From contig CM074512.1 of the NCBI GenBank assembly GCA_037379345.1, positions 48,815,597 through 48,879,596 of the forward strand: 64,000 bases of DNA, written 5' to 3'. The notes below the pieces were generated by a model, which saw nothing but the letters and a program-made list of their open reading frames with translations, made no database searches and was not told the origin of the DNA. Both the position numbers and the translations under genes were made by a program. Shown piece after piece: positions 11,424 to 53,493 of this stretch. The stretch is from Perna viridis (Eukaryota). Each line of letters begins with the position of its first letter. Position 1 is the stretch's first letter.

Positions 11424-11503
11424 CGGGGGATAGCGCGAACGCAGTCCCCCACACTAAAAAATTGCGTACCCGAGTTGCCCACATTTGGGGCAATCGCAGG
11501 CTT
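11424..11503 (-). pseudogene. U1: U1 snRNA 3' fragment (nt 85-164), disrupted by truncated retrotransposon
   Basis: Identical to array U1; nt 51-84 missing. Confidence 0.9.
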
Positions 11504-12908
11504 TTTTTTTTCTTCTCCGAGATGCAAAAATTTAAATGTTTAGACAATAGAGCAATTAACTGTTTAAAACAGTTAACAGTGAAAATTATACTAACAACAC
11601 AATAGGAAATAGAGCACACTCGACAATGACATGTGAGTATATTTTTAGTGTTAATAAAACGTTCTATCAAACAATGAACAGAAAATATTTGAGGCTCTAA
11701 GCATTTAACACTGAACAGAAATAAGCTAAATGAAACACATCTTGTCACGTATAAAATGAAAACGGCAAATATAGAAAGTGAAAAATTACCAATAACACAT
11801 AATAATATACGATAATACAAAATAATAAACGAAAAGAGAAAAATACACCAATAGGTTGAGTAGTCCATGAACAGAAAGGCTATCAAAACAGGGGGGATAG
11901 AATAGTACTCATTGTCCATAATCATTCCGTTTCATTGTCGTTTAACTAACATCAACAGCTGTGTCCTCCGTGTTCTCCGGGGCTGTTATCAAAGAAGGGA
12001 GGAAAGGCTTCATTTCCATTTCCTCCAAATCATCACTACCACCATAATCATTGCACTCCGCCGCTCTTCGCTTCTTGGTTACAGACTCCTCTGTACCATG
12101 CCTCATCCCGCGCTTGTCTTGCGGGGAAGCCATACTCTCCTTCTCCTTCTCTTGCCCCCTCCCGCGCTTGTCTTGCGGGGGGCCCATACCTTCTTTATCC
12201 TGCCCCCTCCCGCGCTTGTCTTGCGGGGGGCCCATACTCTCTTTCTCCTGCCTCCTCCCGCGCCGGTCTTGCTGGGAAACCACATTCACCTCCTGCTCAT
12301 CTGAAACTCTTGCTGCAGCAGCATATGAGGGTTTTCCTTTACTTGGGCAGGTAGCCCTCTGATGACCCACCTCATTACATTTTAGACATAATGAGGGTCT
12401 CCCTCTCATGGTTACAAGTATCCGCCTTCCAGCAACAGTCACCTTGTACGGTACCTTATGAATATCAGAATCTGGCATTTCAACCAGATAATTAATGACA
12501 CCATTTTTTAACTTGGTGCCATCAATCACAGTGTCCTCAAAATCTTTCTTAATGATTTTTCCATAATTTTGTAGGAAATTGTCCACATAACAACTCTTCA
12601 TATGTAGAGGATACCAATGTATTCTAATGGCAACTTGTCTCTTATCTAAACGCTCGAAATGGTATAGACTTCCACCTGGAGCCTCAAAAGTTTGTCCCGT
12701 GCCCAAAGCATCAACTGTATCAGTGGAACTCAACCCAAGATACCAATCTCCACCCTCATCGCACTTATAAATAGCTGTAATCAATGAAGGATTAATGGTT
12801 CCTTTCAGCGCCTCAAGTACTTGTCCTCTGGTATTAAACCACTTTTTCCCAAAATTGACCTTCAGTGTTTTACTCACTGCGTCAGCATCCAAATACTCCA
12901 TTTTGATT
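11504..12908 (-). mobile_element. 3'-truncated type A Tx1-like element (ORF1 plus part of the inter-ORF region) with short poly(A)
   Basis: Matches 29002-30398 with a few substitutions; A10 tail (11502-11511, first 2 nt shared with U1); no ORF2. Confidence 0.92.
11942..12901 (-). CDS. Tx1-like ORF1 protein type A (319 aa, CCHC zinc knuckle)
   Basis: ATG in AAAATGG context; CLKCNEVGHQRATC knuckle; PSYAAAA motif; PPQDKRGRG repeats. Confidence 0.85.
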   Translation of the reverse strand: MEYLDADAVSKTLKVNFGKKWFNTRGQVLEALKGTINPSLITAIYKCDEGGDWYLGLSSTDTVDALGTGQTFEAPGGSLYHFERLDKRQVAIRIHWYPLHMKSCYVDNFLQNYGKIIKKDFEDTVIDGTKLKNGVINYLVEMPDSDIHKVPYKVTVAGRRILVTMRGRPSLCLKCNEVGHQRATCPSKGKPSYAAAARVSDEQEVNVVSQQDRRGRRQEKESMGPPQDKRGRGQDKEGMGPPQDKRGRGQEKEKESMASPQDKRGMRHGTEESVTKKRRAAECNDYGGSDDLEEMEMKPFLPSLITAPENTEDTAVDVS

Positions 12909-12958
12909 CTGGGGGAACCGCCTTTGTGATCACGGTATCCCCTGTACCAGGTAAGTAT
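12909..12958 (-). pseudogene. U1: U1 snRNA 5' fragment (nt 1-50) fused to retrotransposon
   Basis: ATACTTACCTGG...GGTTCCCCCAG followed by element sequence. Confidence 0.92.
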
Positions 12959-24670: not shown

Positions 24671-24795
24671 CGGGGGATAGCGCGAACGCAGTCCCCCACA
24701 CTAAAAAATTGCGTACCCGAGTTGCCCACATTTGGGGCAATCGCAGGCTTCAGCCTAACCGGAGTGCAATGGAAAGGCCTCGACCTGGGGGAACC
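24671..24795 (-). pseudogene. U1: U1 snRNA 3' fragment (nt 40-164) after insertion
   Basis: Resumes at GGTTCCCCCAG after the element poly(A). Confidence 0.92.
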
Positions 24796-25195
24796 TTTTT
24801 TTTTTTAATTTCAAAAATTTATTCAGTAAAACTTCATACGTAATACATGACAATAAATTAAAACATAAATATCACAGATAATACATTGTGCATGTATACA
24901 GATATGAATAATGTATGCATAAATATCAACTTTGTTATTGGTTAATGCAAGAAAGAACATTGGGATAAATAGTTATATCTCAAATCAATACATGATACAT
25001 AGGTATATAATACCTTCTGACACAACAAAACACCTGAAGAGAAAAAAATTCAAATGCCCTGTTATTATAGTACTCCTGTAAATTACAAGACGCCACCCTC
25101 CCATTAACTCAAATAGGGAAAAAATACAAAAATTAAAACTTAAGGGTACCTTAATAGAATCAAGTTAATAAACCTATTACTTCAAGACTTATAAC

Positions 25196-28100
25196 TCAGA
25201 AAAAAGTGATTTCTAAATCATCATCTTGTACTTTACAGAGTAAGTCACTTGAGCACCAAAACTCAGTGAACTTTAGTATTGGAAATCTATAAAAGTCAGC
25301 TTCAATACGTAATTTCAGCTGCTGTAAATAGAAAATATAAATATCATTTGGTAAAACATGTTTACCATCAAACTTTTTACTATTTCTTTTAATCCATACA
25401 GTTTTACAATATAAAGAAATCAACAATAATACCACACTTTTAGTTCTTCCAACAACATTAATATCTCTAAAAAGTATATGTTTATAATCTAAGGAAATAC
25501 TTCCATTAGATAAAGAGAATATCCAATTCTTAATAAGAACAAATAAGTTTTTGACATCCCTACATTCGCAAAATAAATGAATTAAAGTTTCCGGTTCTCT
25601 GGCACAAAAAGTACATCTATTAGACTTATACACATTATGATTAAATAATAAACTATTAGTAGGCAAAACATTATGCACTACTTTATAAATAACATCTCTA
25701 GAAAAGCGATCAATAAACTTATCAAATACATTTTTAAATACAATTCTAAAATCCACTCCAGGATTTTTTTCAACAACTTTAGGAACATAAATTTCCTTTT
25801 CTAATAGAACCTTATACAAAACTTTTGTAGTTACACCCCTTAGATCTACATCACTACACAATTTTAAATCAATTAAAGCATCAATACAACATCTATAAAA
25901 GGACGAAATGACCTCACTGTGAGGCATGTATAAAGATGTAAACAATTCATTATAAAATCGTAAAGAATAACCAGCCCAGTATATCGCATAATTGACAAAC
26001 TTTACCTGTCTATTGTTAATAATATCGGACAAGTGTTTCAAGCGTAACGCTTTTAACTTTAAATCGATATTCACAATATTCAAACCACCCTGACTTAAAT
26101 CTAAATATAAATTCTTACGACTAATCATTTCTACCTTATCATTCCATATAAACTTAAAAATACAACGTTGGAATTTAATTATCCAATGTTTAGACATCGG
26201 CACAACAGTACCTACATACCACAACTTAGATAAAGCACACGTATTTACAATAATTGATTTTTCTAATAAAGATAAACTTCTCAACCTCCATAATTTCAAG
26301 GTCTTTTCTAACTTAATAAAAATGGGATGCCATACATCATCCTGTGACAAATCATTACCACACTTAATACCTATTAATTTCATACTATCAACAAAATTTA
26401 TACCAAATCTATGATTTTCTTTTCTACATTTCCAAGCACCTAACCACATACCTTTTGTTTTATTTTTATTAAGCTTGGAACCTGAACCTTTACCAAATAA
26501 ATCAATCCAATATAAAAATTTATGTATACTTTTATCAGTAGTAACAATACCAGTACTATCATCGGCAAAAACAGATATTTTACAATTATCAACAGAACCA
26601 GGAATATTCATACCAATAATATCAGTATCGTTCACAACTTTACGAACAAAAGGTTCAAGACATAAAACATATAATAAAGGTGACAAACTACACCCTTGTT
26701 TGACAGATCTAGTGATCCGCACAGGGTCAGAAATAAAATTATTCACAATAACTGATGAAGACAAATCATGATATAAAATCTTGATCCATTTAATTAAATT
26801 CGGACCAAAATTAAATTTTTCTAAAACATTGAATAAAAAGGTATGATTAATACGATCAAATGCTTTCTCTTGATCAAGAGAAATGAAAGCACAATTAATA
26901 TTCTTCTGATTAACATAGTCAATAATGTTCCTATGTAAATGGGCATTGTCTAAAATACTTCTGCCCCTAACAGCACAAGTTTGATCAACACCAATAATTT
27001 TATCAGAAACTAAACCCATTCTATTACAAATAATTTTACTTAAAATCTTAACATCAATATTAATTAAACTAATAGGACGATAACATTTAACATCAAAATG
27101 TCTAGAAACATCTTTACAAATAAGAGATATATAACTTGTTCTTTGACTAACTGACAAAGTATTTTCATCAAAAATATTATCATACAAATTTAATAACAAA
27201 GGTGCAAAAATGTCAATAAATTTGACATAAAATTCTTTGGGCAGTCCATCAGGCCCCGGTGATTTATTGTTATCCATACCTTTAACAGAGTTAATAATTT
27301 CATCCTCAGTAATATTAGATTCACAAATATCTCTATCATCATTATCTAACATAGGTAAATCATCTAAGAAATATTTCATAACATCAAAATCAATAGCTTC
27401 CTCTTTAAATAAATCACTATAAAAGTTTTCAAATTGCTTAATAATATCGCAATGTTTTGTAAAAATACCATCATCATTTCTAATTTCACAAATATTTTTC
27501 TTTTTTCCTCTACGAACTTCCTTTTGGAAAAAATATTGACTCGGAAGTTCACTATTATCTAGTAAATTTGCTTTACTTCTAATTTGAGCACCTCTAAAAT
27601 CTTTAACATAATAATCTTTAATCTCATTCTTAAGTACATCAATTTGTTCTGAAAAATTACCTGGCGTTTTCTTTTCTAATTTACATAAATGAAAATATCG
27701 TTTCTCTAATTGTCTAATTACAGTATACTTAAGTTTATTTTTCTTTTTACAATAATCAATACAAAAGACCTTAATATTTTCTTTAAAATAATCCCACATA
27801 TCAATACACATATCTAAACCATCGATAAAGTTAATAAACCACTCTCGAAAAGAAATACAAAAAGCTCTATCGTCTAATATAGAGGTGTTTAATTTCCAAT
27901 AACCTTCACCTCTCTTTACATCAGTGTTATTTACAAACGATACATAAACACAATCATGATCAGAAAAAGCAAAAGGTAGAACGTCACAATTCTTAACAAA
28001 AGGTTTTAATTCACTAGAAAAGTACATGCAATCTAATCGACACGCAATATTATTACCCCGCCAGGTGACACATTTACAATTAGGATATAAATACCTATAA

Positions 28101-28696
28101 ACGTCACAAAGGTCAAAATCAGATACAATGGTTCTTAATTTGTCAACACCTGTAGTACCTAAATGGGGATTTCCCCCGATCTTATCAAGTTTTGGATCCA
28201 TAATACAATTAAAATCACCACCAAATATTTTACAATTCTGTGTCATTAGAAAAGGATATATATACTCAAAGAATTCTTTTCTATCACTACTATCATTAGG
28301 TGCATAAATATTAAACAATCTATACGGAACATTATCAATTTTAACATCAATAAATTGAAAACGTCCGTCTATATCTCTATGATATTTAACTACAACAAAA
28401 TCTATAGAATGAGAAATAAAAATAGCTGTTCCCCTACTTAAATTAGAACCGAAGTTCCAAAAACATCTATACATATGTAAGTATTTATCTAAAATCTTAC
28501 TTACTTTAGAATTCGAAACATGAGTTTCTTGTAAAAATAATATATCTATATATTTACGCAAACAAAATTGCTTCAATACATACTGACATTTCACATCTAA
28601 TAATCCATTAATATTCAAAGTAGCACAATTGATTATGTTTTCTTTTTCAGATAAAGTCGTAATAATATTGATAATTAAGAACGGTATATAACTCAA
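25196..28696 (-). CDS. ORF2: AP-like endonuclease, reverse transcriptase and C-terminal zinc finger (Tx1/L1 type); frame opens at TTG
   Basis: NINGL, LQETH, NIYAPN, GGDFN, SDHD; KSPGPDG, YRPISL, DQEKAFD, QGCSLSP, FADD; CTFC..ETLIHLFCEC. Confidence 0.95.
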   Translation of the reverse strand: MSYIPFLIINIITTLSEKENIINCATLNINGLLDVKCQYVLKQFCLRKYIDILFLQETHVSNSKVSKILDKYLHMYRCFWNFGSNLSRGTAIFISHSIDFVVVKYHRDIDGRFQFIDVKIDNVPYRLFNIYAPNDSSDRKEFFEYIYPFLMTQNCKIFGGDFNCIMDPKLDKIGGNPHLGTTGVDKLRTIVSDFDLCDVYRYLYPNCKCVTWRGNNIACRLDCMYFSSELKPFVKNCDVLPFAFSDHDCVYVSFVNNTDVKRGEGYWKLNTSILDDRAFCISFREWFINFIDGLDMCIDMWDYFKENIKVFCIDYCKKKNKLKYTVIRQLEKRYFHLCKLEKKTPGNFSEQIDVLKNEIKDYYVKDFRGAQIRSKANLLDNSELPSQYFFQKEVRRGKKKNICEIRNDDGIFTKHCDIIKQFENFYSDLFKEEAIDFDVMKYFLDDLPMLDNDDRDICESNITEDEIINSVKGMDNNKSPGPDGLPKEFYVKFIDIFAPLLLNLYDNIFDENTLSVSQRTSYISLICKDVSRHFDVKCYRPISLINIDVKILSKIICNRMGLVSDKIIGVDQTCAVRGRSILDNAHLHRNIIDYVNQKNINCAFISLDQEKAFDRINHTFLFNVLEKFNFGPNLIKWIKILYHDLSSSVIVNNFISDPVRITRSVKQGCSLSPLLYVLCLEPFVRKVVNDTDIIGMNIPGSVDNCKISVFADDSTGIVTTDKSIHKFLYWIDLFGKGSGSKLNKNKTKGMWLGAWKCRKENHRFGINFVDSMKLIGIKCGNDLSQDDVWHPIFIKLEKTLKLWRLRSLSLLEKSIIVNTCALSKLWYVGTVVPMSKHWIIKFQRCIFKFIWNDKVEMISRKNLYLDLSQGGLNIVNIDLKLKALRLKHLSDIINNRQVKFVNYAIYWAGYSLRFYNELFTSLYMPHSEVISSFYRCCIDALIDLKLCSDVDLRGVTTKVLYKVLLEKEIYVPKVVEKNPGVDFRIVFKNVFDKFIDRFSRDVIYKVVHNVLPTNSLLFNHNVYKSNRCTFCAREPETLIHLFCECRDVKNLFVLIKNWIFSLSNGSISLDYKHILFRDINVVGRTKSVVLLLISLYCKTVWIKRNSKKFDGKHVLPNDIYIFYLQQLKLRIEADFYRFPILKFTEFWCSSDLLCKVQDDDLEITFF

Positions 28697-29415
28697 AACG
28701 AATTAGCCAAATTATAATTACAGGTAACTTGCAAGAAATTAAATGTCTGGTTAGGGAAAAGAACAAAGAAACTAATTGCACTGTAAAAATCTAAATGTCC
28801 AAACAAAAGACAAAACACAGTAGATTTAAAAAATCTTTTGAAAATGCAACAGTATTTCAAACGGTCACAATGAAAGAATATGTAACGAAATTTTATCGTC
28901 TGCAAACAAAGATAAATTACAGGTAAGTTATAAACATTATGATAAGAAAAGTTTAAATACCTAAAGGAAGAAAATTGTTCAAGGTGAACTGATACAATAG
29001 ACTTCTCCGACATGCAAAAATTTAAATGTTTAGACAATAGAGCAATTAACTGTTTAAAACAGTTAACAGTGAAAATGATACTAACAAAACAATAGAAAAT
29101 AAAGCACACTCGACAATGACATGTGAGTATATTTTTAGTGTTAATAAAACGTTCTATCAAACAATGAACAGAAAATATTTGAGGCTCTAAGCATTTAACA
29201 CTGAACAGAAATAAGCTAAATGAAACACATCTTGTCACGTATAAAATGAAAACGGCAAATATAGAAAGTGAAAAATTACCAATAACACATAATAATATAC
29301 GATAATACAAAATAATAAACGAAAAGAGAAAAATACACCAATAGGTTGAGTAGTCCATGAACAGAAAGGCTATCAAAACAGGGGGGATAGAATAGTACTC
29401 ATTGTCCATAATCAT
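28693..29415 (-). CDS. Putative third ORF (240 aa, very hydrophobic) between ORF1 and ORF2
   Basis: ATG 16 nt after the ORF1 stop; fills the whole inter-ORF region; its TGA overlaps the ORF2 TTG. Confidence 0.45.
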   Translation of the reverse strand: MIMDNEYYSIPPVLIAFLFMDYSTYWCIFLFSFIILYYRILLCVIGNFSLSIFAVFILYVTRCVSFSLFLFSVKCLEPQIFSVHCLIERFINTKNILTCHCRVCFIFYCFVSIIFTVNCFKQLIALLSKHLNFCMSEKSIVSVHLEQFSSFRYLNFSYHNVYNLPVIYLCLQTIKFRYIFFHCDRLKYCCIFKRFFKSTVFCLLFGHLDFYSAISFFVLFPNQTFNFLQVTCNYNLANSF

Positions 29416-29431
29416 TCCGTTTCATTGTCGT

Positions 29432-30391
29432 TTAACTAACATCAACAGCTGTGTCCTCCGTGTTCTCCGGGGCTGTTATCAAAGAAGGGAGGAAAGGCTT
29501 CATTTCCATTTCCTCCAAATCATCACTACCACCATAATCATTGCACTCCGCCGCTCTTCGCTTCTTGGTTACAGACTCCTCTGTACCATGCCTCATCCCG
29601 CGCTTGTCTTGCGGGGAAGCCATACTCTCCTTCTCCTTCTCTTGCCCCCTCCCGCGCTTGTCTTGCGGGGGGCCCATACCTTCTTTATCCTGCCCCCTCC
29701 CGCGCTTGTCTTGCGGGGGGCCCATACTCTCTTTCTCCTGCCTCCTCCCGCGCTGGTCTTGCTGGGAAACCACATTCACCTCCTGCTCATCTGAAACTCT
29801 TGCTGCAGCAGCATATGAGGGTTTTCCTTTACTTGGGCAGGTAGCCCTCTGATGACCCACCTCATTACATTTTAGACATAATGAGGGTCTCCCTCTCATG
29901 GTTACAAGTATCCGCCTTCCAGCAACAGTCACCTTGTACGGTACCTTATGAACATCAGAATCTGGCATTTCAACCAGATAATTAATGACACCATTTTTTA
30001 ACTTGGTGCCATCAATCACAGTGTCCTCAAAATCTTTCTTAATGATTTTTCCATAATTTTGTAGGAAATTGTCCACATAACAACTCTTCATATGTAGAGG
30101 ATACCAATGTATTCTAATGGCAACTTGTCTCTTATCTAAACGCTCGAAATGGTATAGACTTCCACCTGGAGCCTCAAAAGTTTGTCCCGTGCCCAAAGCA
30201 TCAACTGTATCAGTGGAACTCAACCCAAGATACCAATCTCCACCCTCATCGCACTTATAAATAGCTGTAATCAATGAAGGATTAATGGTTCCTTTCAGCG
30301 CCTCAAGTACTTGTCCTCTGGTATTAAACCACTTTTTCCCAAAATTGACCTTCAGTGTTTTACTCACTGCGTCAGCATCCAAATACTCCAT
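29432..30391 (-). CDS. Tx1-like ORF1 protein type A (319 aa)
   Basis: CCHC knuckle CLKCNEVGHQRATC; ATG 7 nt inside the element. Confidence 0.88.
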   Translation of the reverse strand: MEYLDADAVSKTLKVNFGKKWFNTRGQVLEALKGTINPSLITAIYKCDEGGDWYLGLSSTDTVDALGTGQTFEAPGGSLYHFERLDKRQVAIRIHWYPLHMKSCYVDNFLQNYGKIIKKDFEDTVIDGTKLKNGVINYLVEMPDSDVHKVPYKVTVAGRRILVTMRGRPSLCLKCNEVGHQRATCPSKGKPSYAAAARVSDEQEVNVVSQQDQRGRRQEKESMGPPQDKRGRGQDKEGMGPPQDKRGRGQEKEKESMASPQDKRGMRHGTEESVTKKRRAAECNDYGGSDDLEEMEMKPFLPSLITAPENTEDTAVDVS

Positions 30392-30398
30392 TTTGATT

Positions 30399-30448
30399 CT
30401 GGGGGAACCGCCTTTGTGATCACGGTATCCCCTGTACCAGGTAAGTAT
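30399..30448 (-). pseudogene. U1: U1 snRNA 5' fragment (nt 1-50) fused to element
   Basis: Direct match. Confidence 0.92.
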
Positions 30449-37081: not shown

Positions 37082-37206
37082 CGGGGGATAGCGCGAACGC
37101 AGTCCCCCACACTAAAAAATTGCGTACCCGAGTTGCCCACATTTGGGGCAATCGCAGGCTTCAGCCTAACCGGAGTGCAATGGAAAGGCCTCGACCTGGG
37201 GGAACC
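37082..37206 (-). pseudogene. U1: U1 snRNA 3' fragment (nt 40-164) after insertion
   Basis: Direct match. Confidence 0.92.
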
Positions 37207-37610
37207 TTTTTTTTTTTTTTAATTTCAAACAATTTATTCAGTAAAACTTCATACGTAATACATGACAATAAATTAAAACATAAATATCACAGATAATACA
37301 TTGTGCATGTATACAGATATGAATAATGTATGCATAAATATCAACTTTGTTATTGGTTAATGCAAGAAAGAACATTGGGATAAATAGTTATATCTCAAAT
37401 CAATACATGATACATAGGTATATAATACCTTCTGACACAACAAAACATCTGAAGAGAAAAAAATTCAAATGCCCTGTTATTATAGTACTCCTGTAAATTA
37501 CAAGACGCCACCCTCCCATTAACTCAAATAGGGAAAAAATACAAAAATTAAAACTTAAGGGTACCTTAATAGAATCAAGTTAATAAACCTATTACTTCAA
37601 GACTTATAAC

Positions 37611-40600
37611 TCAGAAAAAAGTGATTTCTAAATCATCATCTTGTACTTTACAGAGTAAGTCACTTGAGCACCAAAACTCAGTGAACTTTAGTATTGGAAA
37701 TCTATAAAAGTCAGCTTCAATACGTAATTTCAGCTGCTGTAAATAGAAAATATAAATATCATTTGGTAAAACATGTTTACCATCAAACTTTTTACTATTT
37801 CTTTTAATCCATACAGTTTTACAATATAAAGAAATCAACAATAATACCACACTTTTAGTTCTTCCAACAACATTAATATCTCTAAAAAGTATATGTTTAT
37901 AATCTAAGGAAATACTTCCATTAGATAAAGAGAATATCCAATTCTTAATAAGAACAAATAAATTTTTGACATCCCTACATTCGCAAAATAAATGAATTAA
38001 AGTTTCCGGTTCTCTGGCACAAAAAGTACATCTATTAGACTTATACACATTATGATTAAATAATAAACTATTAGTAGGCAAAACATTATGCACTACTTTA
38101 TAAATAACATCTCTAGAAAAGCGATCAAGAAACTTATCAAATACATTTTTAAATACAATTCTAAAATCCACTCCAGGATTTTTTTCAACAACTTTAGGAA
38201 CATAAATTTCCTTTTCTAATAGAACCTTATACAAAACTTTTGTAGTTACACCCCTTAGATCTACATCACTACACAATTTTAAATCAATTAAAGCATCAAT
38301 ACAACATCTATAAAAGGACGAAATGACCTCACTGTGAGGCATGTTTAAAGATGTAAACAATTCATTATAAAATCGTAAAGAATAACCAGCCCAGTATATC
38401 GCATAATTGACAAACTTTACCTGTCTATTGTTAATAATATCGGACAAGTGTTTCAAGCGTAACGCTTTTAACTTTAAATCGATATTCACAATATTCAAAC
38501 CACCCTGACTAAAATCTAAATATAAATTCTTACGACTAATCATTTCTACCTTATCATTCCATATAAACTTAAAAATACAACGTTGGAATTTAATTATCCA
38601 ATGTTTAGACATCGGCACAACAGTACCTACATACCACAACTTAGATAAAGCACACGTATTTACAATAATTGATTTTTCTAATAAAGATAAACTTCTCAAC
38701 CTCCATAATTTCAAGGTCTTTTCTAACTTAATAAAAATGGGATGCCATACATCATCCTGTGACAAATCATTACCACACTTAATACCTATTAATTTCATAC
38801 TATCAACAAAATTTATACCAAATCTATGATTTTCTTTTCTACATTTCCAAGCACCTAACCACATACCTTTTGTTTTATTTTTATTAAGCTTGGAACCTGA
38901 ACCTTTACCAAATAAATCAATCCAATATAAAAATTTATGTATACTTTTATCAGTAGTAACAATACCAGCACTATCATCGGCAAAAACAGATATTTTACAA
39001 TTATCAACAGAACCAGGAATATTCATACCAATAATATCAGTATCGTTCACAACTTTGCGCACAAAAGGTTCAAGACATAAAACATATAATAAAGGTGACA
39101 AACTACACCCTTGTTTGACAGATCTAGTGATCCGTACAGGATCAGAAATAAAATTATTCACAATAACTGATGAAGACAAATCATGATATAAAATCTTGAT
39201 CCATTTAATTAAATTCGGACCAAAATTAAATTTTTCTAAAACATTGAATAAAAAGGTATGATTAATACGATCAAATGCTTTCTCTTGATCAAGAGAAATG
39301 AAAGCACAATTAATATTCTTCTGATTAACATAGTCAATAATGTTCCTATGTAAATGGGCATTGTCTAAAATACTTCTGCCCCTAACAGCACAAGTTTGAT
39401 CAACACCAATAATTTTATCAGAAACTAAACCCATTCTATTACAAATAATTTTACTTAAAATCTTAACATCAATATTAATTAAACTAATAGGACGATAACA
39501 TTTAACATCAAAATGTCTAGAAACGTCTTTACAAATAAGAGATATATAACTTGTTCTTTGACTAACTGACAAAGTATTTTCATCAAAAATATTATCATAC
39601 AAATTTAATAACAAAGGTGCAAAAATGTCAATAAATTTGACATAAAATTCTTTGGGCAGTCCATCAGGTCCCGGTGATTTATTGTTATCCATACCTTTAA
39701 CAGAGTTAATAATTTCATCCTCAGTAATATTTGATTCACAAACATCTCTATCATCATTATCTAACATAGGTAAATCATCTAAGAAATATTTCATAACATC
39801 AAAATCAATAGCTTCCTCTTTAAATAAATCACTATAAAAGTTTTCAAATTGCTTAATAATATCGCAATGTTTTGTAAAAATACCATCATCATTTCTAATT
39901 TCACAAATATTTTTCTTTTTACCTCTACGAACTTCCTTTTGGAAAAAATATTGACTCGGAAGTTCACTATTATCTAGTAAATTTGCTTTACTTCTAATTT
40001 GAGCACCTCTAAAATCTTTAACATAATAATCTTTAATCTCATTCTTAAGTACATCAATTTGTTCTGAAAAATTACCTGGCATTTTCTTTTCTAATTTACA
40101 TAAATGAAAATATCGTTTCTCTAATTGTCTAATCACTGTATACTTAAGTTTATTTTTCTTTTTACAATAATCAATACAAAAGACCTTAATATTTTCTTTA
40201 AAATAATCCCACATATCAATACACATATCTAAACCATCGATAAAGTTAATAAACCACTCTCGAAAAGAAATACAAAAAGCTCTATCGTCTAATATAGAGG
40301 TGTTTAATTTCCAATAACCTTCACCTCTCTTCACATCAGTGTTATTGGCAAACGATATATGAACACAATCATGATCAGAAAAAGCAAAAGGTAGAACGTC
40401 ACAATTCTTAACAAAAGGTTTTAATTCATTAGAAAAGTACATGCGATCTAATCGACACGCAATATTATTACCCCGCCAGGTGACACATTTACAATTAGGA
40501 TATAAATACCTATAAACGTCACAAAGGTCAAAATCAGATACAATGGTTCTTAATTTATCAACACCTGTAGTACCTAAATGGGGATTTCCCCCGATCTTAT

Positions 40601-41069
40601 CAAGTTTTGGATCCATAATACAATTAAAATCACCACCAAATATTTTACAATTCTGTGTCATTAGAAAAGGATATATATACTCAAAGAAATCTTTTCTATC
40701 ACTACTATCATTAGGAGCATAAATATTAAACAATCTATACGGAACATTATCAATTTTAACATCAATAAATTGAAAACGTCCGTCTATATCTCTATGATAT
40801 TTCACTACAACAAAATCTATAGAATGAGAAATAAAAATAGCTGTTCCCCTACTTAAATTAGAACCGAAGTTCCAAAAACATCTATATAATTCAAAATAAG
40901 TATTTAAGTCATTACTTATAATGGAGTTTGAAACATGCGTTTCTTGCAAAAACAAAATATCTACATGTTTACGCAAACAAAAATCTCTTAGTGCGTACTG
41001 ACACTTTACATCAAGTAACCCATTACAATTCAAAGTTGCAATATTCAATAAATTATCAATGTTTGTCAC
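37611..41069 (-). CDS. ORF2 (APE endonuclease-RT-zinc finger), type B; no ATG, first near-cognate start GTG
   Basis: Same motifs as type A; CRLDRMY. Confidence 0.95.
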   Translation of the reverse strand: MTNIDNLLNIATLNCNGLLDVKCQYALRDFCLRKHVDILFLQETHVSNSIISNDLNTYFELYRCFWNFGSNLSRGTAIFISHSIDFVVVKYHRDIDGRFQFIDVKIDNVPYRLFNIYAPNDSSDRKDFFEYIYPFLMTQNCKIFGGDFNCIMDPKLDKIGGNPHLGTTGVDKLRTIVSDFDLCDVYRYLYPNCKCVTWRGNNIACRLDRMYFSNELKPFVKNCDVLPFAFSDHDCVHISFANNTDVKRGEGYWKLNTSILDDRAFCISFREWFINFIDGLDMCIDMWDYFKENIKVFCIDYCKKKNKLKYTVIRQLEKRYFHLCKLEKKMPGNFSEQIDVLKNEIKDYYVKDFRGAQIRSKANLLDNSELPSQYFFQKEVRRGKKKNICEIRNDDGIFTKHCDIIKQFENFYSDLFKEEAIDFDVMKYFLDDLPMLDNDDRDVCESNITEDEIINSVKGMDNNKSPGPDGLPKEFYVKFIDIFAPLLLNLYDNIFDENTLSVSQRTSYISLICKDVSRHFDVKCYRPISLINIDVKILSKIICNRMGLVSDKIIGVDQTCAVRGRSILDNAHLHRNIIDYVNQKNINCAFISLDQEKAFDRINHTFLFNVLEKFNFGPNLIKWIKILYHDLSSSVIVNNFISDPVRITRSVKQGCSLSPLLYVLCLEPFVRKVVNDTDIIGMNIPGSVDNCKISVFADDSAGIVTTDKSIHKFLYWIDLFGKGSGSKLNKNKTKGMWLGAWKCRKENHRFGINFVDSMKLIGIKCGNDLSQDDVWHPIFIKLEKTLKLWRLRSLSLLEKSIIVNTCALSKLWYVGTVVPMSKHWIIKFQRCIFKFIWNDKVEMISRKNLYLDFSQGGLNIVNIDLKLKALRLKHLSDIINNRQVKFVNYAIYWAGYSLRFYNELFTSLNMPHSEVISSFYRCCIDALIDLKLCSDVDLRGVTTKVLYKVLLEKEIYVPKVVEKNPGVDFRIVFKNVFDKFLDRFSRDVIYKVVHNVLPTNSLLFNHNVYKSNRCTFCAREPETLIHLFCECRDVKNLFVLIKNWIFSLSNGSISLDYKHILFRDINVVGRTKSVVLLLISLYCKTVWIKRNSKKFDGKHVLPNDIYIFYLQQLKLRIEADFYRFPILKFTEFWCSSDLLCKVQDDDLEITFF

Positions 41070-41201
41070 GATGTGTATATAGAGTATTTACAACTGAAAC
41101 AACATAAACAAAATACCTTAAAAATTATCAAGGTATTTCAAAAAGTATTTAGAAAATAACTCAATGAAGAAAATTTAAATATCTGACTAATTACAATCAT
41201 G

Positions 41202-41636
41202 CTAATTACAGGTGAAGAATACAAATTTCAACAGGTAAGATATCGGTAGAAATTTAAATGACCAAACAAAAGCAAAAATCTTTAAATGCCCAGACAATAG
41301 AAGAAACGTTAACATCTGGATAATTACAATCAAAAATTTCAGTGCATTAAAGGTAACAAACGGAAAGGTGAAAATCAAAGATGAGTTTAAATCTCTTAGC
41401 AATAGAGAAGTAAAACTATCGTAAAATCTAATCACCAGCCAATTAACACTATAGAAAAAGTGAACTGTAAAAAGTAAAAAGAATAAAAGAGTTACTAAAC
41501 ATATTAATACAAGTAATAGATTACTATTACAAAAACTGGTTTTAAACCCAAAAAAATAAACATTAAACAGATTGCAAGCAATCCGAGATAAATAAACAAT
41601 CGAAATCAAAATCGTTAATCTAAATTCAAAGTCCAT
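41202..41636 (-). CDS. Putative third ORF type B (144 aa, hydrophobic)
   Basis: ATG 47 nt after the ORF1 stop; C-terminal LLLSGHL..TCN resembles type A LLFGHL..TCN. Confidence 0.4.
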   Translation of the reverse strand: MDFEFRLTILISIVYLSRIACNLFNVYFFGFKTSFCNSNLLLVLICLVTLLFFLLFTVHFFYSVNWLVIRFYDSFTSLLLRDLNSSLIFTFPFVTFNALKFLIVIIQMLTFLLLSGHLKIFAFVWSFKFLPISYLLKFVFFTCN

Positions 41637-41683
41637 GGGCGTATTCAGTCAGTTTAGGGGGATTATAACTATACCAAAGTCCA

Positions 41684-42655
41684 TTAACAGTCCGCGTCTA
41701 CATCAATTGCTTCCTCTTCAGGGTTTCTCATTCCCGGTGGAATTAAAAGTGGCCTCTCTAAAGCTTCTTTCTTCACCCTCTTCTCAACGTCTGGTTGTTC
41801 CTTGTTGTCATCTCTGGCTCTTTTAGCATCAGTACCTCGGTCCCTGGAGTAGGAACCTTCACTGCTATATTCAGTACCTCGGCCCTCCTCCACGGGACCT
41901 TCACTGCCGGTTGATACATCAGTGCCCGATCGGGCACCTTCATCACTAGTCGGTACATCGGATCCCTGGGTGGATCCTTCACCGCTGGTTGGTACATCAG
42001 ACCCCTCCTGGGATCCTTCACCACTCGTTGTTGACTCGGTGCTCGGCTGAGCACTTTCATCGCGTCTAGGTCGCCGACTAGTCGCCGCTGCCTTGCCACA
42101 TTTGGCTCTCACATGACCAAATTCTCCACACTTAAGGCATTGAGCTTGCCTTCCTGCAACGGTAATCAAGACATCCCTACCATAAATTTTAGCTCGGTAT
42201 GGCAAACTGCTATATTGACTGTCGGTTGAATACATTTTCCCAGAAACTACACCAGTTTTATACGTAACCTCTTCGAAGGTGTCAGTATCATGCCTCAGTG
42301 CAACCTCACTTCCGTATTTTCTTAGTCCCTCTTTCAACAGGTCTAGTTTTAAGTGCATTGGGAACCAATGCACTTTAAAACGAACTAAACGCCTATCTAT
42401 CCGGCTAAAGAAGAGTGGAACTCCTTTCGCCTGGAAAGACCGCTCCATCGTAAGCCTCTCTACTGTGAGTGGGTGTTTGAAGGAAACAAACCAGTCACCA
42501 TCTTCACCACACTTGTAGACGGCGTCTATCTCGTCACCATTGACTACTTCCTTCAAATATGGTATAACTTCACGTTGAGTAAACAATCTCTTCTTCAAAC
42601 CAATTGCCAACCGGAGAGTCCTACCGGACACACTTCCATCTACATAGTGGTCCAT
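41684..42655 (-). CDS. Tx1-like ORF1 protein type B (323 aa)
   Basis: CLKCGEFGHVRAKC knuckle; VYKCGEDGDWF and VHWFPMH homologous to type A; EGS..GSDVPTS repeats. Confidence 0.88.
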   Translation of the reverse strand: MDHYVDGSVSGRTLRLAIGLKKRLFTQREVIPYLKEVVNGDEIDAVYKCGEDGDWFVSFKHPLTVERLTMERSFQAKGVPLFFSRIDRRLVRFKVHWFPMHLKLDLLKEGLRKYGSEVALRHDTDTFEEVTYKTGVVSGKMYSTDSQYSSLPYRAKIYGRDVLITVAGRQAQCLKCGEFGHVRAKCGKAAATSRRPRRDESAQPSTESTTSGEGSQEGSDVPTSGEGSTQGSDVPTSDEGARSGTDVSTGSEGPVEEGRGTEYSSEGSYSRDRGTDAKRARDDNKEQPDVEKRVKKEALERPLLIPPGMRNPEEEAIDVDADC

Positions 42656-42709
42656 TCTGGTAAATAAGGGATTCCTCACGGAATACACCTTATGTATGAG
42701 TACAGAGGA

Positions 42710-42764
42710 TCGACCTGGGGGAACCGCCTTTGTGATCACGGTATCCCCTGTACCAGGTAAGTAT
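42710..42764 (-). pseudogene. U1: U1 snRNA 5' fragment (nt 1-55) fused to element
   Basis: Direct match. Confidence 0.92.
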
Positions 42765-47710: not shown

Positions 47711-47834
47711 CGGGGGATAGCGCGAACGCAGTCCCCCACACTAAAAAATTGCGTACCCGAGTTGCCCACATTTGGGGCAATCGCAGGCTTCAGCCTAACC
47801 GGAGTGCAATGGAAAGGCCTCGACCTGGGGGAAC
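47711..47834 (-). pseudogene. U1: U1 snRNA 3' fragment (nt 41-164) after insertion
   Basis: Direct match. Confidence 0.92.
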
Positions 47835-48240
47835 TTTTTTTTTTTTTTTTAATTTCAAACAATTTATTCAGTAAAACTTCATACGTAATACATGACAATA
47901 AATTAAAACATAAATATCACAGATAATACATTGTGCATGTATACAGATATGAATAATGTATGCATAAATATCAACTTTGTTATTGGTTAATGCAAGAAAG
48001 AACATTGGGATAAATAGTTATATCTCAAATCAATACATGATACATAGGTATATAATACCTTCTGACACAACAAAACACCTGAAGAGAAAAAAATTCAAAT
48101 GCCCTGTTATTATAGTACTCCTGTAAATTACAAGACGCCACCCTCCCATTAACTCAAATAGGGAAAAAATACAAAAATTAAAACTTAAGGGTACCTTAAT
48201 AGAATCAAGTTAATAAACCTATTACTTCAAGACTTATAAC

Positions 48241-51200
48241 TCAGAAAAAAGTGATTTCTAAATCATCATCTTGTACTTTACAGAGTAAGTCACTTGAGCA
48301 CCAAAACTCAGTGAACTTTAGTATTGGAAATCTATAAAAGTCAGCTTCAATACGTAATTTCAGCTGCTGTAAATAGAAAATATAAATATCATTTGGTAAA
48401 ACATGTTTACCATCAAACTTTTTACTATTTCTTTTAATCCATACAGTTTTACAATATAAAGAAATCAACAATAATACCACACTTTTAGTTCTTCCAACAA
48501 CATTAATATCTCTAAAAAGTATATGTTTATAATCTAAGGAAATACTTCCATTAGATAAAGAGAATATCCAATTCTTAATAAGAACAAATAAGTTTTTGAC
48601 ATCCCTACATTCGCAAAATAAATGAATTAAAGTTTCCGGTTCTCTGGCACAAAAAGTACATCTATTAGACTTATACACATTATGATTAAATAATAAACTA
48701 TTAGTAGGCAAAACATTATGCACTACTTTATAAATAACATCTCTAGAAAAGCGATCAATAAACTTATCAAATACATTTTTAAATACAATTCTAAAATCCA
48801 CTCCAGGATTTTTTTCAACAACTTTAGGAACATAAATTTCCTTTTCTAATAGAACCTTATACAAAACTTTTGTAGTTACACCCCTTAGATCTACATCACT
48901 ACACAATTTTAAATCAATTAAAGCATCAATACAACATCTATAAAAGGACGAAATGACCTCACTGTGAGGCATGTATAAAGATGTAAACAATTCATTATAA
49001 AATCGTAAAGAATAACCAGCCCAGTATATCGCATAATTGACAAACTTTACCTGTCTATTGTTAATAATATCGGACAAGTGTTTCAAGCGTAACGCTTTTA
49101 ACTTTAAATCGATATTCACAATATTCAAACCACCCTGACTTAAATCTAAATATAAATTCTTACGACTAATCATTTCTACCTTATCATTCCATATAAACTT
49201 AAAAATACAACGTTGGAATTTAATTATCCAATGTTTAGACATCGGCACAACAGTACCTACATACCACAACTTAGATAAAGCACACGTATTTACAATAATT
49301 GATTTTTCTAATAAAGATAAACTTCTCAACCTCCATAATTTCAAGGTCTTTTCTAACTTAATAAAAATGGGATGCCATACATCATCCTGTGACAAATCAT
49401 TACCACACTTAATACCTATTAATTTCATACTATCAACAAAATTTATACCAAATCTATGATTTTCTTTTCTACATTTCCAAGCACCTAACCACATACCTTT
49501 TGTTTTATTTTTATTAAGCTTGGAACCTGAACCTTTACCAAATAAATCAATCCAATATAAAAATTTATGTATACTTTTATCAGTAGTAACAATACCAGTA
49601 CTATCATCGGCAAAAACAGATATTTTACAATTATCAACAGAACCAGGAATATTCATACCAATAATATCAGTATCGTTCACAACTTTACGAACAAAAGGTT
49701 CAAGACATAAAACATATAATAAAGGTGACAAACTACACCCTTGTTTGACAGATCTAGTGATCCGCACAGGGTCAGAAATAAAATTATTCACAATAACTGA
49801 TGAAGACAAATCATGATATAAAATCTTGATCCATTTAATTAAATTCGGACCAAAATTAAATTTTTCTAAAACATTGAATAAAAAGGTATGATTAATACGA
49901 TCAAATGCTTTCTCTTGATCAAGAGAAATGAAAGCACAATTAATATTCTTCTGATTAACATAGTCAATAATGTTCCTATGTAAATGGGCATTGTCTAAAA
50001 TACTTCTGCCCCTAACAGCACAAGTTTGATCAACACCAATAATTTTATCAGAAACTAAACCCATTCTATTACAAATAATTTTACTTAAAATCTTAACATC
50101 AATATTAATTAAACTAATAGGACGATAACATTTAACATCAAAATGTCTAGAAACATCTTTACAAATAAGAGATATATAACTTGTTCTTTGACTAACTGAC
50201 AAAGTATTTTCATCAAAAATATTATCATACAAATTTAATAACAAAGGTGCAAAAATGTCAATAAATTTGACATAAAATTCTTTGGGCAGTCCATCAGGCC
50301 CCGGTGATTTATTGTTATCCATACCTTTAACAGAGTTAATAATTTCATCCTCAGTAATATTAGATTCACAAATATCTCTATCATCATTATCTAACATAGG
50401 TAAATCATCTAAGAAATATTTCATAACATCAAAATCAATAGCTTCCTCTTTAAATAAATCACTATAAAAGTTTTCAAATTGCTTAATAATATCGCAATGT
50501 TTTGTAAAAATACCATCATCATTTCTAATTTCACAAATATTTTTCTTTTTTCCTCTACGAACTTCCTTTTGGAAAAAATATTGACTCGGAAGTTCACTAT
50601 TATCTAGTAAATTTGCTTTACTTCTAATTTGAGCACCTCTAAAATCTTTAACATAATAATCTTTAATCTCATTCTTAAGTACATCAATTTGTTCTGAAAA
50701 ATTACCTGGCGTTTTCTTTTCTAATTTACATAAATGAAAATATCGTTTCTCTAATTGTCTAATTACAGTATACTTAAGTTTATTTTTCTTTTTACAATAA
50801 TCAATACAAAAGACCTTAATATTTTCTTTAAAATAATCCCACATATCAATACACATATCTAAACCATCGATAAAGTTAATAAACCACTCTCGAAAAGAAA
50901 TACAAAAAGCTCTATCGTCTAATATAGAGGTGTTTAATTTCCAATAACCTTCACCTCTCTTTACATCAGTGTTATTTACAAACGATACATAAACACAATC
51001 ATGATCAGAAAAAGCAAAAGGTAGAACGTCACAATTCTTAACAAAAGGTTTTAATTCACTAGAAAAGTACATGCAATCTAATCGACACGCAATATTATTA
51101 CCCCGCCAGGTGACACATTTACAATTAGGATATAAATACCTATAAACGTCACAAAGGTCAAAATCAGATACAATGGTTCTTAATTTGTCAACACCTGTAG

Positions 51201-51741
51201 TACCTAAATGGGGATTTCCCCCGATCTTATCAAGTTTTGGATCCATAATACAATTAAAATCACCACCAAATATTTTACAATTCTGTGTCATTAGAAAAGG
51301 ATATATATACTCAAAGAATTCTTTTCTATCACTACTATCATTAGGTGCATAAATATTAAACAATCTATACGGAACATTATCAATTTTAACATCAATAAAT
51401 TGAAAACGTCCGTCTATATCTCTATGATATTTAACTACAACAAAATCTATAGAATGAGAAATAAAAATAGCTGTTCCCCTACTTAAATTAGAACCGAAGT
51501 TCCAAAAACATCTATACATATGTAAGTATTTATCTAAAATCTTACTTACTTTAGAATTCGAAACATGAGTTTCTTGTAAAAATAATATATCTATATATTT
51601 ACGCAAACAAAATTGCTTCAATACATACTGACATTTCACATCTAATAATCCATTAATATTCAAAGTAGCACAATTGATTATGTTTTCTTTTTCAGATAAA
51701 GTCGTAATAATATTGATAATTAAGAACGGTATATAACTCAA
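48241..51741 (-). CDS. ORF2 (APE endonuclease-RT-zinc finger), type A
   Basis: Same protein as 25196-28696. Confidence 0.95.
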   Translation of the reverse strand: MSYIPFLIINIITTLSEKENIINCATLNINGLLDVKCQYVLKQFCLRKYIDILFLQETHVSNSKVSKILDKYLHMYRCFWNFGSNLSRGTAIFISHSIDFVVVKYHRDIDGRFQFIDVKIDNVPYRLFNIYAPNDSSDRKEFFEYIYPFLMTQNCKIFGGDFNCIMDPKLDKIGGNPHLGTTGVDKLRTIVSDFDLCDVYRYLYPNCKCVTWRGNNIACRLDCMYFSSELKPFVKNCDVLPFAFSDHDCVYVSFVNNTDVKRGEGYWKLNTSILDDRAFCISFREWFINFIDGLDMCIDMWDYFKENIKVFCIDYCKKKNKLKYTVIRQLEKRYFHLCKLEKKTPGNFSEQIDVLKNEIKDYYVKDFRGAQIRSKANLLDNSELPSQYFFQKEVRRGKKKNICEIRNDDGIFTKHCDIIKQFENFYSDLFKEEAIDFDVMKYFLDDLPMLDNDDRDICESNITEDEIINSVKGMDNNKSPGPDGLPKEFYVKFIDIFAPLLLNLYDNIFDENTLSVSQRTSYISLICKDVSRHFDVKCYRPISLINIDVKILSKIICNRMGLVSDKIIGVDQTCAVRGRSILDNAHLHRNIIDYVNQKNINCAFISLDQEKAFDRINHTFLFNVLEKFNFGPNLIKWIKILYHDLSSSVIVNNFISDPVRITRSVKQGCSLSPLLYVLCLEPFVRKVVNDTDIIGMNIPGSVDNCKISVFADDSTGIVTTDKSIHKFLYWIDLFGKGSGSKLNKNKTKGMWLGAWKCRKENHRFGINFVDSMKLIGIKCGNDLSQDDVWHPIFIKLEKTLKLWRLRSLSLLEKSIIVNTCALSKLWYVGTVVPMSKHWIIKFQRCIFKFIWNDKVEMISRKNLYLDLSQGGLNIVNIDLKLKALRLKHLSDIINNRQVKFVNYAIYWAGYSLRFYNELFTSLYMPHSEVISSFYRCCIDALIDLKLCSDVDLRGVTTKVLYKVLLEKEIYVPKVVEKNPGVDFRIVFKNVFDKFIDRFSRDVIYKVVHNVLPTNSLLFNHNVYKSNRCTFCAREPETLIHLFCECRDVKNLFVLIKNWIFSLSNGSISLDYKHILFRDINVVGRTKSVVLLLISLYCKTVWIKRNSKKFDGKHVLPNDIYIFYLQQLKLRIEADFYRFPILKFTEFWCSSDLLCKVQDDDLEITFF

Positions 51742-52460
51742 AACGAATTAGCCAAATTATAATTACAGGTAACTTGCAAGAAATTAAATGTCTGGTTAGG
51801 GAAAAGAACAAAGAAACTAATTGCACTGTAAAAATCTAAATGTCCAAACAAAAGACAAAACACAGTAGATTTAAAAAATCTTTTGAAAATGCAACAGTAT
51901 TTCAAACGGTCACAATGAAAGAATATGTAACGAAATTTTATCGTCTGCAAACAAAGATAAATTACAGGTAAGTTATAAACATTATGATAAGAAAAGTTTA
52001 AATACCTAAAGGAAGAAAATTGTTCAAGGTGAACTGATACAATAGACTTCTCCGACATGCAAAAATTTAAATGTTTAGACAATAGAGCAATTAACTGTTT
52101 AAAACAGTTAACAGTGAAAATGATACTAACAAAACAATAGAAAATAAAGCACACTCGACAATGACATGTGAGTATATTTTTAGTGTTAATAAAACGTTCT
52201 ATCAAACAATGAACAGAAAATATTTGAGGCTCTAAGCATTTAACACTGAACAGAAATAAGCTAAATGAAACACATCTTGTCACGTATAAAATGAAAACGG
52301 CAAATATAGAAAGTGAAAAATTACCAATAACACATAATAATATACGATAATACAAAATAATAAACGAAAAGAGAAAAATACACCAATAGGTTGAGTAGTC
52401 CATGAACAGAAAGGCTATCAAAACAGGGGGGATAGAATAGTTCTCATTGTCCATAATCAT
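51738..52460 (-). CDS. Putative third ORF (240 aa, hydrophobic)
   Basis: As 28693-29415, with one Y>N difference. Confidence 0.45.
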   Translation of the reverse strand: MIMDNENYSIPPVLIAFLFMDYSTYWCIFLFSFIILYYRILLCVIGNFSLSIFAVFILYVTRCVSFSLFLFSVKCLEPQIFSVHCLIERFINTKNILTCHCRVCFIFYCFVSIIFTVNCFKQLIALLSKHLNFCMSEKSIVSVHLEQFSSFRYLNFSYHNVYNLPVIYLCLQTIKFRYIFFHCDRLKYCCIFKRFFKSTVFCLLFGHLDFYSAISFFVLFPNQTFNFLQVTCNYNLANSF

Positions 52461-52476
52461 TCCGTTTCATTGTCGT

Positions 52477-53436
52477 TTAACTAACATCAACAGCTGTGTC
52501 CTCCGTGTTCTCCGGGGCTGTTATCAAAGAAGGGAGGAAAGGCTTCATTTCCATTTCCTCCAAATCATCACTACCACCATAATCATTGCACTCCGCCGCT
52601 CTTCGCTTCTTGGTTACAGACTCCTCTGTACCATGCCTCATCCCGCGCTTGTCTTGCGGGGAAGCCATACTCTCCTTCTCCTTCTCTTGCCCCCTCCCGC
52701 GCTTGTCTTGCGGGGGGCCCATACCTTCTTTATCCTGCCCCCTCCCGCGCTTGTCTTGCGGGGGGCCCATACTCTCTTTCTCCTGCCTCCTCCCGCGCTG
52801 GTCTTGCTGGGAAACCACATTCACCTCCTGCTCATCTGAAACTCTTGCTGCAGCAGCATATGAGGGTTTTCCTTTACTTGGGCAGGTAGCCCTCTGATGA
52901 CCCACCTCATTACATTTTAGACATAATGAGGGTCTCCCTCTCATGGTTACAAGTATCCGCCTTCCAGCAACAGTCACCTTGTACGGTACCTTATGAACAT
53001 CAGAATCTGGCATTTCAACCAGATAATTAATGACACCATTTTTTAACTTGGTGCCATCAATCACAGTGTCCTCAAAATCTTTCTTAATGATTTTTCCATA
53101 ATTTTGTAGGAAATTGTCCACATAACAACTCTTCATATGTAGAGGATACCAATGTATTCTAATGGCAACTTGTCTCTTATCTAAACGCTCGAAATGGTAT
53201 AGACTTCCACCTGGAGCCTCAAAAGTTTGTCCCGTGCCCAAAGCATCAACTGTATCAGTGGAACTCAACCCAAGATACCAATCTCCACCCTCATCGCACT
53301 TATAAATAGCTGTAATCAATGAAGGATTAATGGTTCCTTTCAGCGCCTCAAGTACTTGTCCTCTGGTATTAAACCACTTTTTCCCAAAATTGACCTTCAG
53401 TGTTTTACTCACTGCGTCAGCATCCAAATACTCCAT
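52477..53436 (-). CDS. Tx1-like ORF1 protein type A (319 aa)
   Basis: As 29432-30391. Confidence 0.88.
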   Translation of the reverse strand: MEYLDADAVSKTLKVNFGKKWFNTRGQVLEALKGTINPSLITAIYKCDEGGDWYLGLSSTDTVDALGTGQTFEAPGGSLYHFERLDKRQVAIRIHWYPLHMKSCYVDNFLQNYGKIIKKDFEDTVIDGTKLKNGVINYLVEMPDSDVHKVPYKVTVAGRRILVTMRGRPSLCLKCNEVGHQRATCPSKGKPSYAAAARVSDEQEVNVVSQQDQRGRRQEKESMGPPQDKRGRGQDKEGMGPPQDKRGRGQEKEKESMASPQDKRGMRHGTEESVTKKRRAAECNDYGGSDDLEEMEMKPFLPSLITAPENTEDTAVDVS

Positions 53437-53443
53437 TTTGATT

Positions 53444-53493
53444 CTGGGGGAACCGCCTTTGTGATCACGGTATCCCCTGTACCAGGTAAGTAT
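53444..53493 (-). pseudogene. U1: U1 snRNA 5' fragment (nt 1-50) fused to element
   Basis: Direct match. Confidence 0.92.

Follow-up and report, generated by a model that had tools for sequence, protein, structure and literature searches.

An L1-group LINE with an APE endonuclease inserts at nt 40 of the U1 snRNA genes of this genome, and each of its two subtypes joins its 5' end to U1 at a fixed position of its own; the likely route to that junction is transcription from the U1 promoter followed by pairing of the U1 leader with the cut target. The window, by which we mean the whole stretch of 64,000 nucleotides analyzed, lies on contig C2 of a 723-Mb animal genome assembly, and the support for the leader idea is stronger outside it than inside.

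Insertions in two U1 arrays

From 11377 to 64000 the window is a tandem array of ~1.7-kb units, each with a 7SL gene on the plus strand and a U1 gene on the minus strand, and the array runs ~11 kb beyond the window. There are 20 7SL genes in the window, with the U1 genes on the opposite strand. A census by exact match of the intact 164-nt U1 to the minus strand gave 21 U1 5' ends, four of which (4/21) are interrupted by a LINE, always in the U1 sense direction. The 7SL and U1 genes stand back to back within one tandem unit (window 13633-63605), and an orphan unit occurs at C2:63.6 Mb. A lone U1 at L080:4687-4850 (G000:C1:30.32 Mb) has the window allele, lacks the array flanks and is followed by an A-rich stretch; it may be a retrocopy. 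Elsewhere in the window, minus-strand open frames at 1025-2784 have weak, below cut-off matches to DUF4371 and zf-C17orf113 and are probably a decayed DNA-transposon gene.

The four inserted copies all lie on the minus strand. Copy A2 (24796-30398) is a full-length type A element of 5603 nt with ORF1 (30391-29432), an ORF2 frame (28702-25196) and poly(A); it stands between exact matches to U1 nt 1-50 upstream (30399-30448) and nt 40-164 downstream (24671-24795), and its target duplication is 11 nt (U1 nt 40-50). Copy A3 (47835-53443), also full-length type A, is 99.96% identical to A2 and stands between exact U1 nt 1-50 (53444-53493) and nt 41-164 (47711-47834). The type B copy (37207-42709; 5503 nt) has a 54-nt UTR, ORF1 at 42655-41684 (323 aa) and an ORF2 frame at 41087-37611; exact U1 nt 1-55 precedes it (42710-42764), exact nt 40-164 follows it (37082-37206), and the duplication is 16 nt (U1 nt 40-55). 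The shortest, copy A1 (11512-12908), is the first 1397 nt of type A, namely a 7-nt UTR, ORF1 (12901-11942; 319 aa) and part of the spacer, with no ORF2. Upstream of it is an exact match to U1 nt 1-50 (12909-12958), the putative leader; downstream come 10 A on the element strand (11502-11511), eight of them untemplated by the element and two of which could be U1 nt 85-86, and then U1 nt 85-164 (11424-11503), in the last unit of the array. The sequence-only reading had placed the end of U1 nt 1-50 at 12909, 30399 and 53444, with the same element start next to each, and the type B junctions at nt 55 and nt 40; all of this is correct, the type B junctions falling at 42710 and 37206. So are the nucleotides it gave for the resumption of U1 after type A, nt 85-87, 40 and 41; they lie at 11503 (nt 85, ambiguous over 85-87 because the AA at nt 85-86 adjoins the A tail), 24795 (nt 40) and 47834 (nt 41).

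A second U1 array, on contig C9, has its own spacer and promoter flank. It contains a full type A copy (5' junction nt 50, 3' junction nt 40), a type B copy (5' nt 55, 3' nt 40) that has lost 2.9 kb, an old, 93%-identical type A 5' end that joins at nt 50, and a truncated copy ending at nt 40, plus degenerate pieces. Window and C9 copies of each subtype are 99.4-99.7% identical. At G000:C9:30043426-30050518 a head-to-tail pair consists of a truncated copy's tail, U1 nt 40-50 and a full type A copy, in that order.

Over the two arrays, every type A 5' end found in the genome lies at nt 50 (5/5) and both intact type B 5' ends lie at nt 55 (2/2). The 3' junctions in U1 are at nt 40 in five of seven cases, with one at nt 41 and one at nt 85-87. 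The sequence-only reading had expected that a collection of junction pairs would show 5' junctions fixed per subtype and variable 3' junctions; among the assembly copies the first expectation was borne out and the second was not, the 3' variability coming down to A1 and the 3' site being essentially fixed. Matches to the element's 3' end number 11 genome-wide: six distinct copies in U1 arrays, four in a related non-U1 repeat and a distant one at C11.

The element and its sister families

ORF2 encodes an N-terminal APE endonuclease, a reverse transcriptase and a C-terminal zf-RVT domain (Pfam Exo_endo_phos, RVT_1 and zf-RVT, all above cut-off), and its best solved relative is human L1 ORF2p (E 8e-71, versus 1e-15 for R2). 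ORF1 (319 aa in type A, 323 aa in type B) has a CCHC knuckle, read from the sequence. With this APE-RT-zinc ORF2, an ORF1, a poly(A) tail, target duplication and 5'-truncated copies, the element belongs to the L1 group of non-LTR retrotransposons. It also shows sequence-specific insertion in multicopy genes, a trait of the Tx1 clade, while its target in the window is U1 and not the U2 snRNA that is the Keno target. We call it Keno/Tx1-like, a provisional name based on anatomy and targets and not on phylogeny; among the matches listed (120 of 1406 homologues) none is a protein named as Tx1 or Keno.

The ORF1 proteins of types A and B are only 29% identical. Their ORF2 genes have 98% DNA identity from type A nt 1774 onward, with differences mostly before about nt 2000, and the two types also differ over the first ~60 endonuclease residues. 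The 5' UTR is 7 nt in type A and 54 nt in type B; with the ORF1 start codon 7 nt past the junction, type A has no room for a promoter upstream of ORF1. In both U1 subtypes ORF2 (25196-28702 and 37611-41087, minus strand) has no AUG near its start, the first Met being residue 77 and 143, and is preceded by 600-730 nt of T-rich spacer, while the U2 and U4 sisters described below have a Met near the ORF2 start; non-AUG initiation or splicing is possible for the U1 subtypes.

An endonuclease search of the genome found close relatives at three other places, in U2, U4 and U5 genes. Across the sister families ORF2 is 58-67% identical, the U2-targeting sister being 67% identical to the U1 element. In the U2 family, all 11 matches to the junction pattern are element 5' ends at U2 nt 23 (against 67 matches to the intact pattern, only a few of which were read), and the 3' junction is at nt 37 in eight of 11. 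The result is a fixed 13-nt target deletion, common to two ORF1 subtypes that are 67% alike. These 11 copies are partly duplicates and represent ~3 lineages; five are near-identical and spaced at 8.6 kb. The U4 sister is present as two copies in a U4 snRNA array (G000:C5:23.83-23.84 Mb; L076, L077); its duplication is 22 nt long, and the ORF2 frames, both open, measure 1162 and 1134 aa. We rejected its leader SNPs as evidence of transfer because the two copies carry different SNPs. The U5 sister is present as broken copies with two ORF1 types, with duplications of 20 nt and, if the 3' site is common, 15 nt. Inheritance of the junction would predict just this combination: 3' sites that are fixed, and 5' junctions that are constant within a lineage but differ between lineages, from -13 to +22.

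Swapping of ORF1 onto a shared ORF2 recurs, with two ORF1 types in each of the U1 family, the U2 family (G000:C12:15.12-15.31 Mb) and the U5 locus (L079); in the U1 family the breakpoint falls inside the endonuclease N-terminus. Many further intact LINE ORF2 frames of 1300-1313 aa, at ~30% identity, are clustered 6-30 kb apart on several contigs and may be another site-specific family. For relatives in metagenome contigs, 75 pattern matches yielded none that was confirmed.

Fixing of the 5' junction

Copies that lost their 5' ends, and with them any leader, serve as a control. Two such 5'-truncated copies lie on C8 in a non-U1 repeat, at an insertion site similar to U1 nt 40-53. The first, which begins within the spacer of type A and carries its endonuclease, shows a duplication of 13-17 nt (the range reflects a 4-nt microhomology); the other shows a duplication of 14-16 nt. 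Both fit the 16 nt of type B and neither fits the 11 nt of full-length type A, so that full-length type A differs from the truncated copies and type B does not. That full-length type A has a shorter duplication than leaderless copies favors leader-guided joining, and the comparison, made on two copies at a different target and with mobilization in trans possible, points to a second cut near +16, which in type A would be shortened through pairing. On C9 there is a third short copy, older than these, with an apparent duplication of 43-47 nt, which may be a local tandem duplication. The duplication count omits the truncated C9 copy (its 5' end runs directly into spacer), the degenerate 5' end of type B on C9, and two copies in which no duplication was read, a long one at C9:13.95 Mb and the one on C11. 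The second target itself (G000:C8:44.51-44.61 Mb, L106-L111; C8:43.55 Mb) is a tandem unit of ~1 kb in which a TATA box precedes a short stretch that looks like a gene; it has 644 pattern matches genome-wide and no credible match in Rfam, and is possibly an undescribed small-RNA gene array.

Two positions at which the U1 arrays have different alleles, nt 18 and nt 46, serve as natural markers; nt 46 lies inside the duplicated stretch. All 19 of the C9 genes printed have A18 and T46. The window copies have G18/C46 in 4/4, whereas T46 is found in all three C9 copies with a readable 5' side (and on the 3' side where present) and A18 in the one that is clean there. The presence of both subtypes in both arrays at such high identity implies at least two inter-array moves. 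Transfer of a SNP from the U1 leader into the target had been predicted, yet every readable copy has the local allele: at least two moves and no transfers, an outcome that random mismatch repair would also yield about one time in four. The leader thus seems to pair with the target and not to overwrite it; the local alleles argue against overwriting, and only weakly against pairing, in which a mismatch can be resolved either way.

Leader-bearing copies outside U1 genes were absent among 56 U1 5' matches (54 in the two arrays and two orphan U1 genes with no element). Raw RNA reads on the element are few (23 and 118 placed, few of them sense), none of those listed spans a junction, and the depth is too low for junctions, splicing or early poly(A); the RNA data neither show nor exclude a U1-element chimeric transcript. 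We also compared leader-UTR folding with 300 shuffles in eight cases, with two measures each. Only C9 type B and two U2 cases stand out. The UTR of the U2 family folds back on the U2 leader (equaled by 1/300 and 11/300 shuffles). Type B begins with 10 nt that are exactly complementary to nt 12-21 of the C9 allele of U1 (1/300 shuffles), which suggests a C9 origin of type B, although its window copy still has local alleles. Folding with the leader is not outstanding for the window's own type B (206 and 175 of 300), and the type A, U4 and U5 UTRs show no gain (196, 248, 279 and 264 of 300 shuffles).

We propose the following route. The U1 promoter would drive transcription of the element, giving a cDNA with the U1 leader at its end. 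The endonuclease would nick the bottom strand at nt 39/40 and prime on the poly(A), and a cut of the top strand ~16 nt downstream would leave a 3' overhang of U1 nt 40-55. The cDNA leader would then pair with this overhang, unpaired ends would be trimmed and the second strand would be made; type A would pair only to nt 50, leaving an 11-nt duplication, and type B to nt 55. A 5' junction that is inherited rather than remade, with the target's own top strand surviving, fits the local alleles. What this keeps of the sequence-only reading is a 5' junction set by the U1 leader, fixed per subtype and, in type A, giving a duplication shorter than in leaderless copies; its A1 exhibit, variable 3' site and SNP transfer are given up. 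It had further held that the leader, instead of a staggered second cut, sets the duplication length, but the agreement of type B's 16 nt with the truncated copies indicates that a second cut probably exists and that the leader only trims.

Copy A1 was central to that earlier argument. The claimed target loss of 34-36 bp (U1 nt 51-84/86) is present; as evidence of mechanism it is ambiguous, A1 being an ORF1-only piece whose 3' end fits later deletion at least as well. It stops at element nt 1397, where 8-10 A follow that full-length copies lack there, and is without 4.2 kb of element. Its junction falls on the only AAG of U1 nt 41-164 (nt 85-87). An AAG, made up of the tail and G40, is likewise present at a normal junction, and deleting 47 nt from one AAG to the other yields exactly the A1 sequence. 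One contig of run X5, with five A1 alleles (one of them in no other assembled copy), continues unbroken past the A1 end; contigs show presence and not absence, and this one shows that a longer relative of A1 exists. Against A2 and A3, A1 has five alleles in common with the C9 type A copy, which rules out that it is a plain duplicate of the present A2 or A3 and implies more than one lineage; one further A1 allele is common to A2 alone. Every route to A1 requires a pair of rare steps, the first being either early polyadenylation or a large deletion and the second either off-site priming or a small deletion. We lean toward A1 having begun as an ordinary nt-40 insertion that later lost U1 nt 41-87, and A1 is too ambiguous to carry the leader argument. 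Half-L1 (HAL1) elements consist of a 5' end, ORF1 and an A tail with no ORF2; A1 has this outline, but is a single copy among five type A 5' matches and not a family.

The most serious alternative to leader-guided joining, in our view unlikely, dispenses with leader pairing: proteins of each subtype (or a 5' RNA signal) would determine where the second cut falls, +11 or +16, and the target would supply both copies of the duplication. This would account for the local nt 46 alleles in all readable copies of both arrays; it could draw on the differences between types A and B in ORF1 and the endonuclease N-terminus, and has a parallel in R1B lineages whose duplications of 8, 11, 13 and 14 bp were interpreted as cleavage shifts (PMC2718515). 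However, the truncated copy with the type A endonuclease duplicates 13-17 nt rather than 11, the 7-nt UTR implies an RNA that would start in U1, and the sister families span -13 to +22 with ORF2 proteins that are 58-67% identical.

We regard as improbable the stronger leader model of the sequence-only reading, in which the cDNA leader invades the upstream target and takes its place without any second cut at a set position, and in which A1 is a direct product of priming at nt 85 of U1 that deleted 34-36 bp. In favor of this model, the A tail of A1 is clean and its 5' junction lies exactly at nt 50, and the U2 sister is an example, within this group, of a fixed deletion upstream of the nick. Yet U1 nt 85 is unlike the sites used in U1 and in the C8 target (GGTT or GGTG, 4-5 nt, C(A/T)GGTC), and the A1 junction sits on that sole AAG, which repeats the tail plus G40 of a normal junction. 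Later deletions are common in these families (the 3' end is gone from two of 11 U2 copies, and 2.9 kb from type B on C9), no SNP was transferred, and neither AATAAA nor ATTAAA occurs near element nt 1397. It is very improbable that array turnover or gene conversion simply copied one insertion and its junctions. Such copying has signs in its favor: A2 and A3 differ by one substitution and one indel over 5.6 kb, the five U2-family copies repeat at their regular spacing, and the A1 allele common only to A2 looks like conversion. But the same junctions recur in the 93%-identical copy and in the C9 array, whose promoter flank is distinct and whose particular U1 alleles stand on both sides of the insertion; since in addition the lineages differ and the spacer variants of A2 and A3 differ on both sides, a fixed junction is unlikely to stem from a single copied insertion.

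Relation to known elements

R1 elements carry an APE endonuclease. The sequence-only reading had contrasted its element with R2 as being of the APE type; that contrast loses its force, leader joining having already been proposed for R1A (PMC2718515). Full-length R1A copies of the Drosophila melanogaster group have a fixed 9-bp deletion, ascribed to upstream target sequence on the RNA, and truncated copies have duplications, so that R1A resembles the U1 LINE in a uniform full-length 5' junction beside different duplications in truncated copies; it differs in its 28S rRNA target and in leaders found at off-target insertions, of which we found none for the U1 LINE (PMC2718515). Also unlike R1A, the U1 LINE has its junction inside the duplication (+11, +16), and only in the U2 sister does it lie upstream of the nick. 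For R2, leader-guided uniform 5' junctions have been proposed, with injection data cited, and ribozyme cleavage occurs inside the upstream 28S sequence (PMC3774820); like the U1 LINE, R2 has uniform 5' junctions, with deletions or duplications proposed to be inherited via the RNA leader (PMC3774820, PMC6895275). R2 differs in having a restriction-like endonuclease and a ribozyme-made 5' end, where the U1 LINE leader would be the natural U1 transcript start. The leader mechanism itself is therefore not new, having been proposed for R2 and R1A (PMC3774820, PMC2718515).

Tx1 elements in U2 (Keno) and in U5 have been described and, like the U1 LINE, are APE LINEs in snRNA genes (PMC4494074); our U2 sister inserts at nt 36/37, within the stretch given in the Utopia paper for the surroundings of the site that Keno and Utopia have in common (PMC4640811). 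Unlike those families, the element of the window targets U1, and another sister targets U4. The crocodilian Tx1-Mar and SINEU gained U1/U2 heads by template switching and insert in a Mariner element (PMC4494074); they share U1-derived 5' sequence with the U1 LINE, which inserts in U1 itself. We found no U1- or U4-specific LINE in literature searches of sources other than Repbase, subscription papers and the supplements of PMC4494074, which may list one, and a 2015 paper lists no LINE for U1 (PMC4640811).

A broader picture is conceivable, although we hold it to be rather doubtful: one LINE lineage may have spread over U1, U2, U4 and U5 of a single genome by dispensing with a promoter of its own. 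Three roles would then fall to the 5' end of the snRNA, those of promoter product, 5'-junction anchor and folded part of the RNA, UTRs would evolve to pair with it, and the leader alone would set a geometry running from -13 to +22. The joining of LINE 5' ends is still described as poorly understood, above all for APE-type elements (PMC6895275). Here two subtypes that hardly differ in ORF2 and share their first nick have different fixed 5' junctions, with marker alleles 4 and 9 nt from the junction; with such subtypes and markers in two arrays, the choice between leader and second cut is directly testable. A LINE specific to U1 or U4 would widen the known target range of LINEs.
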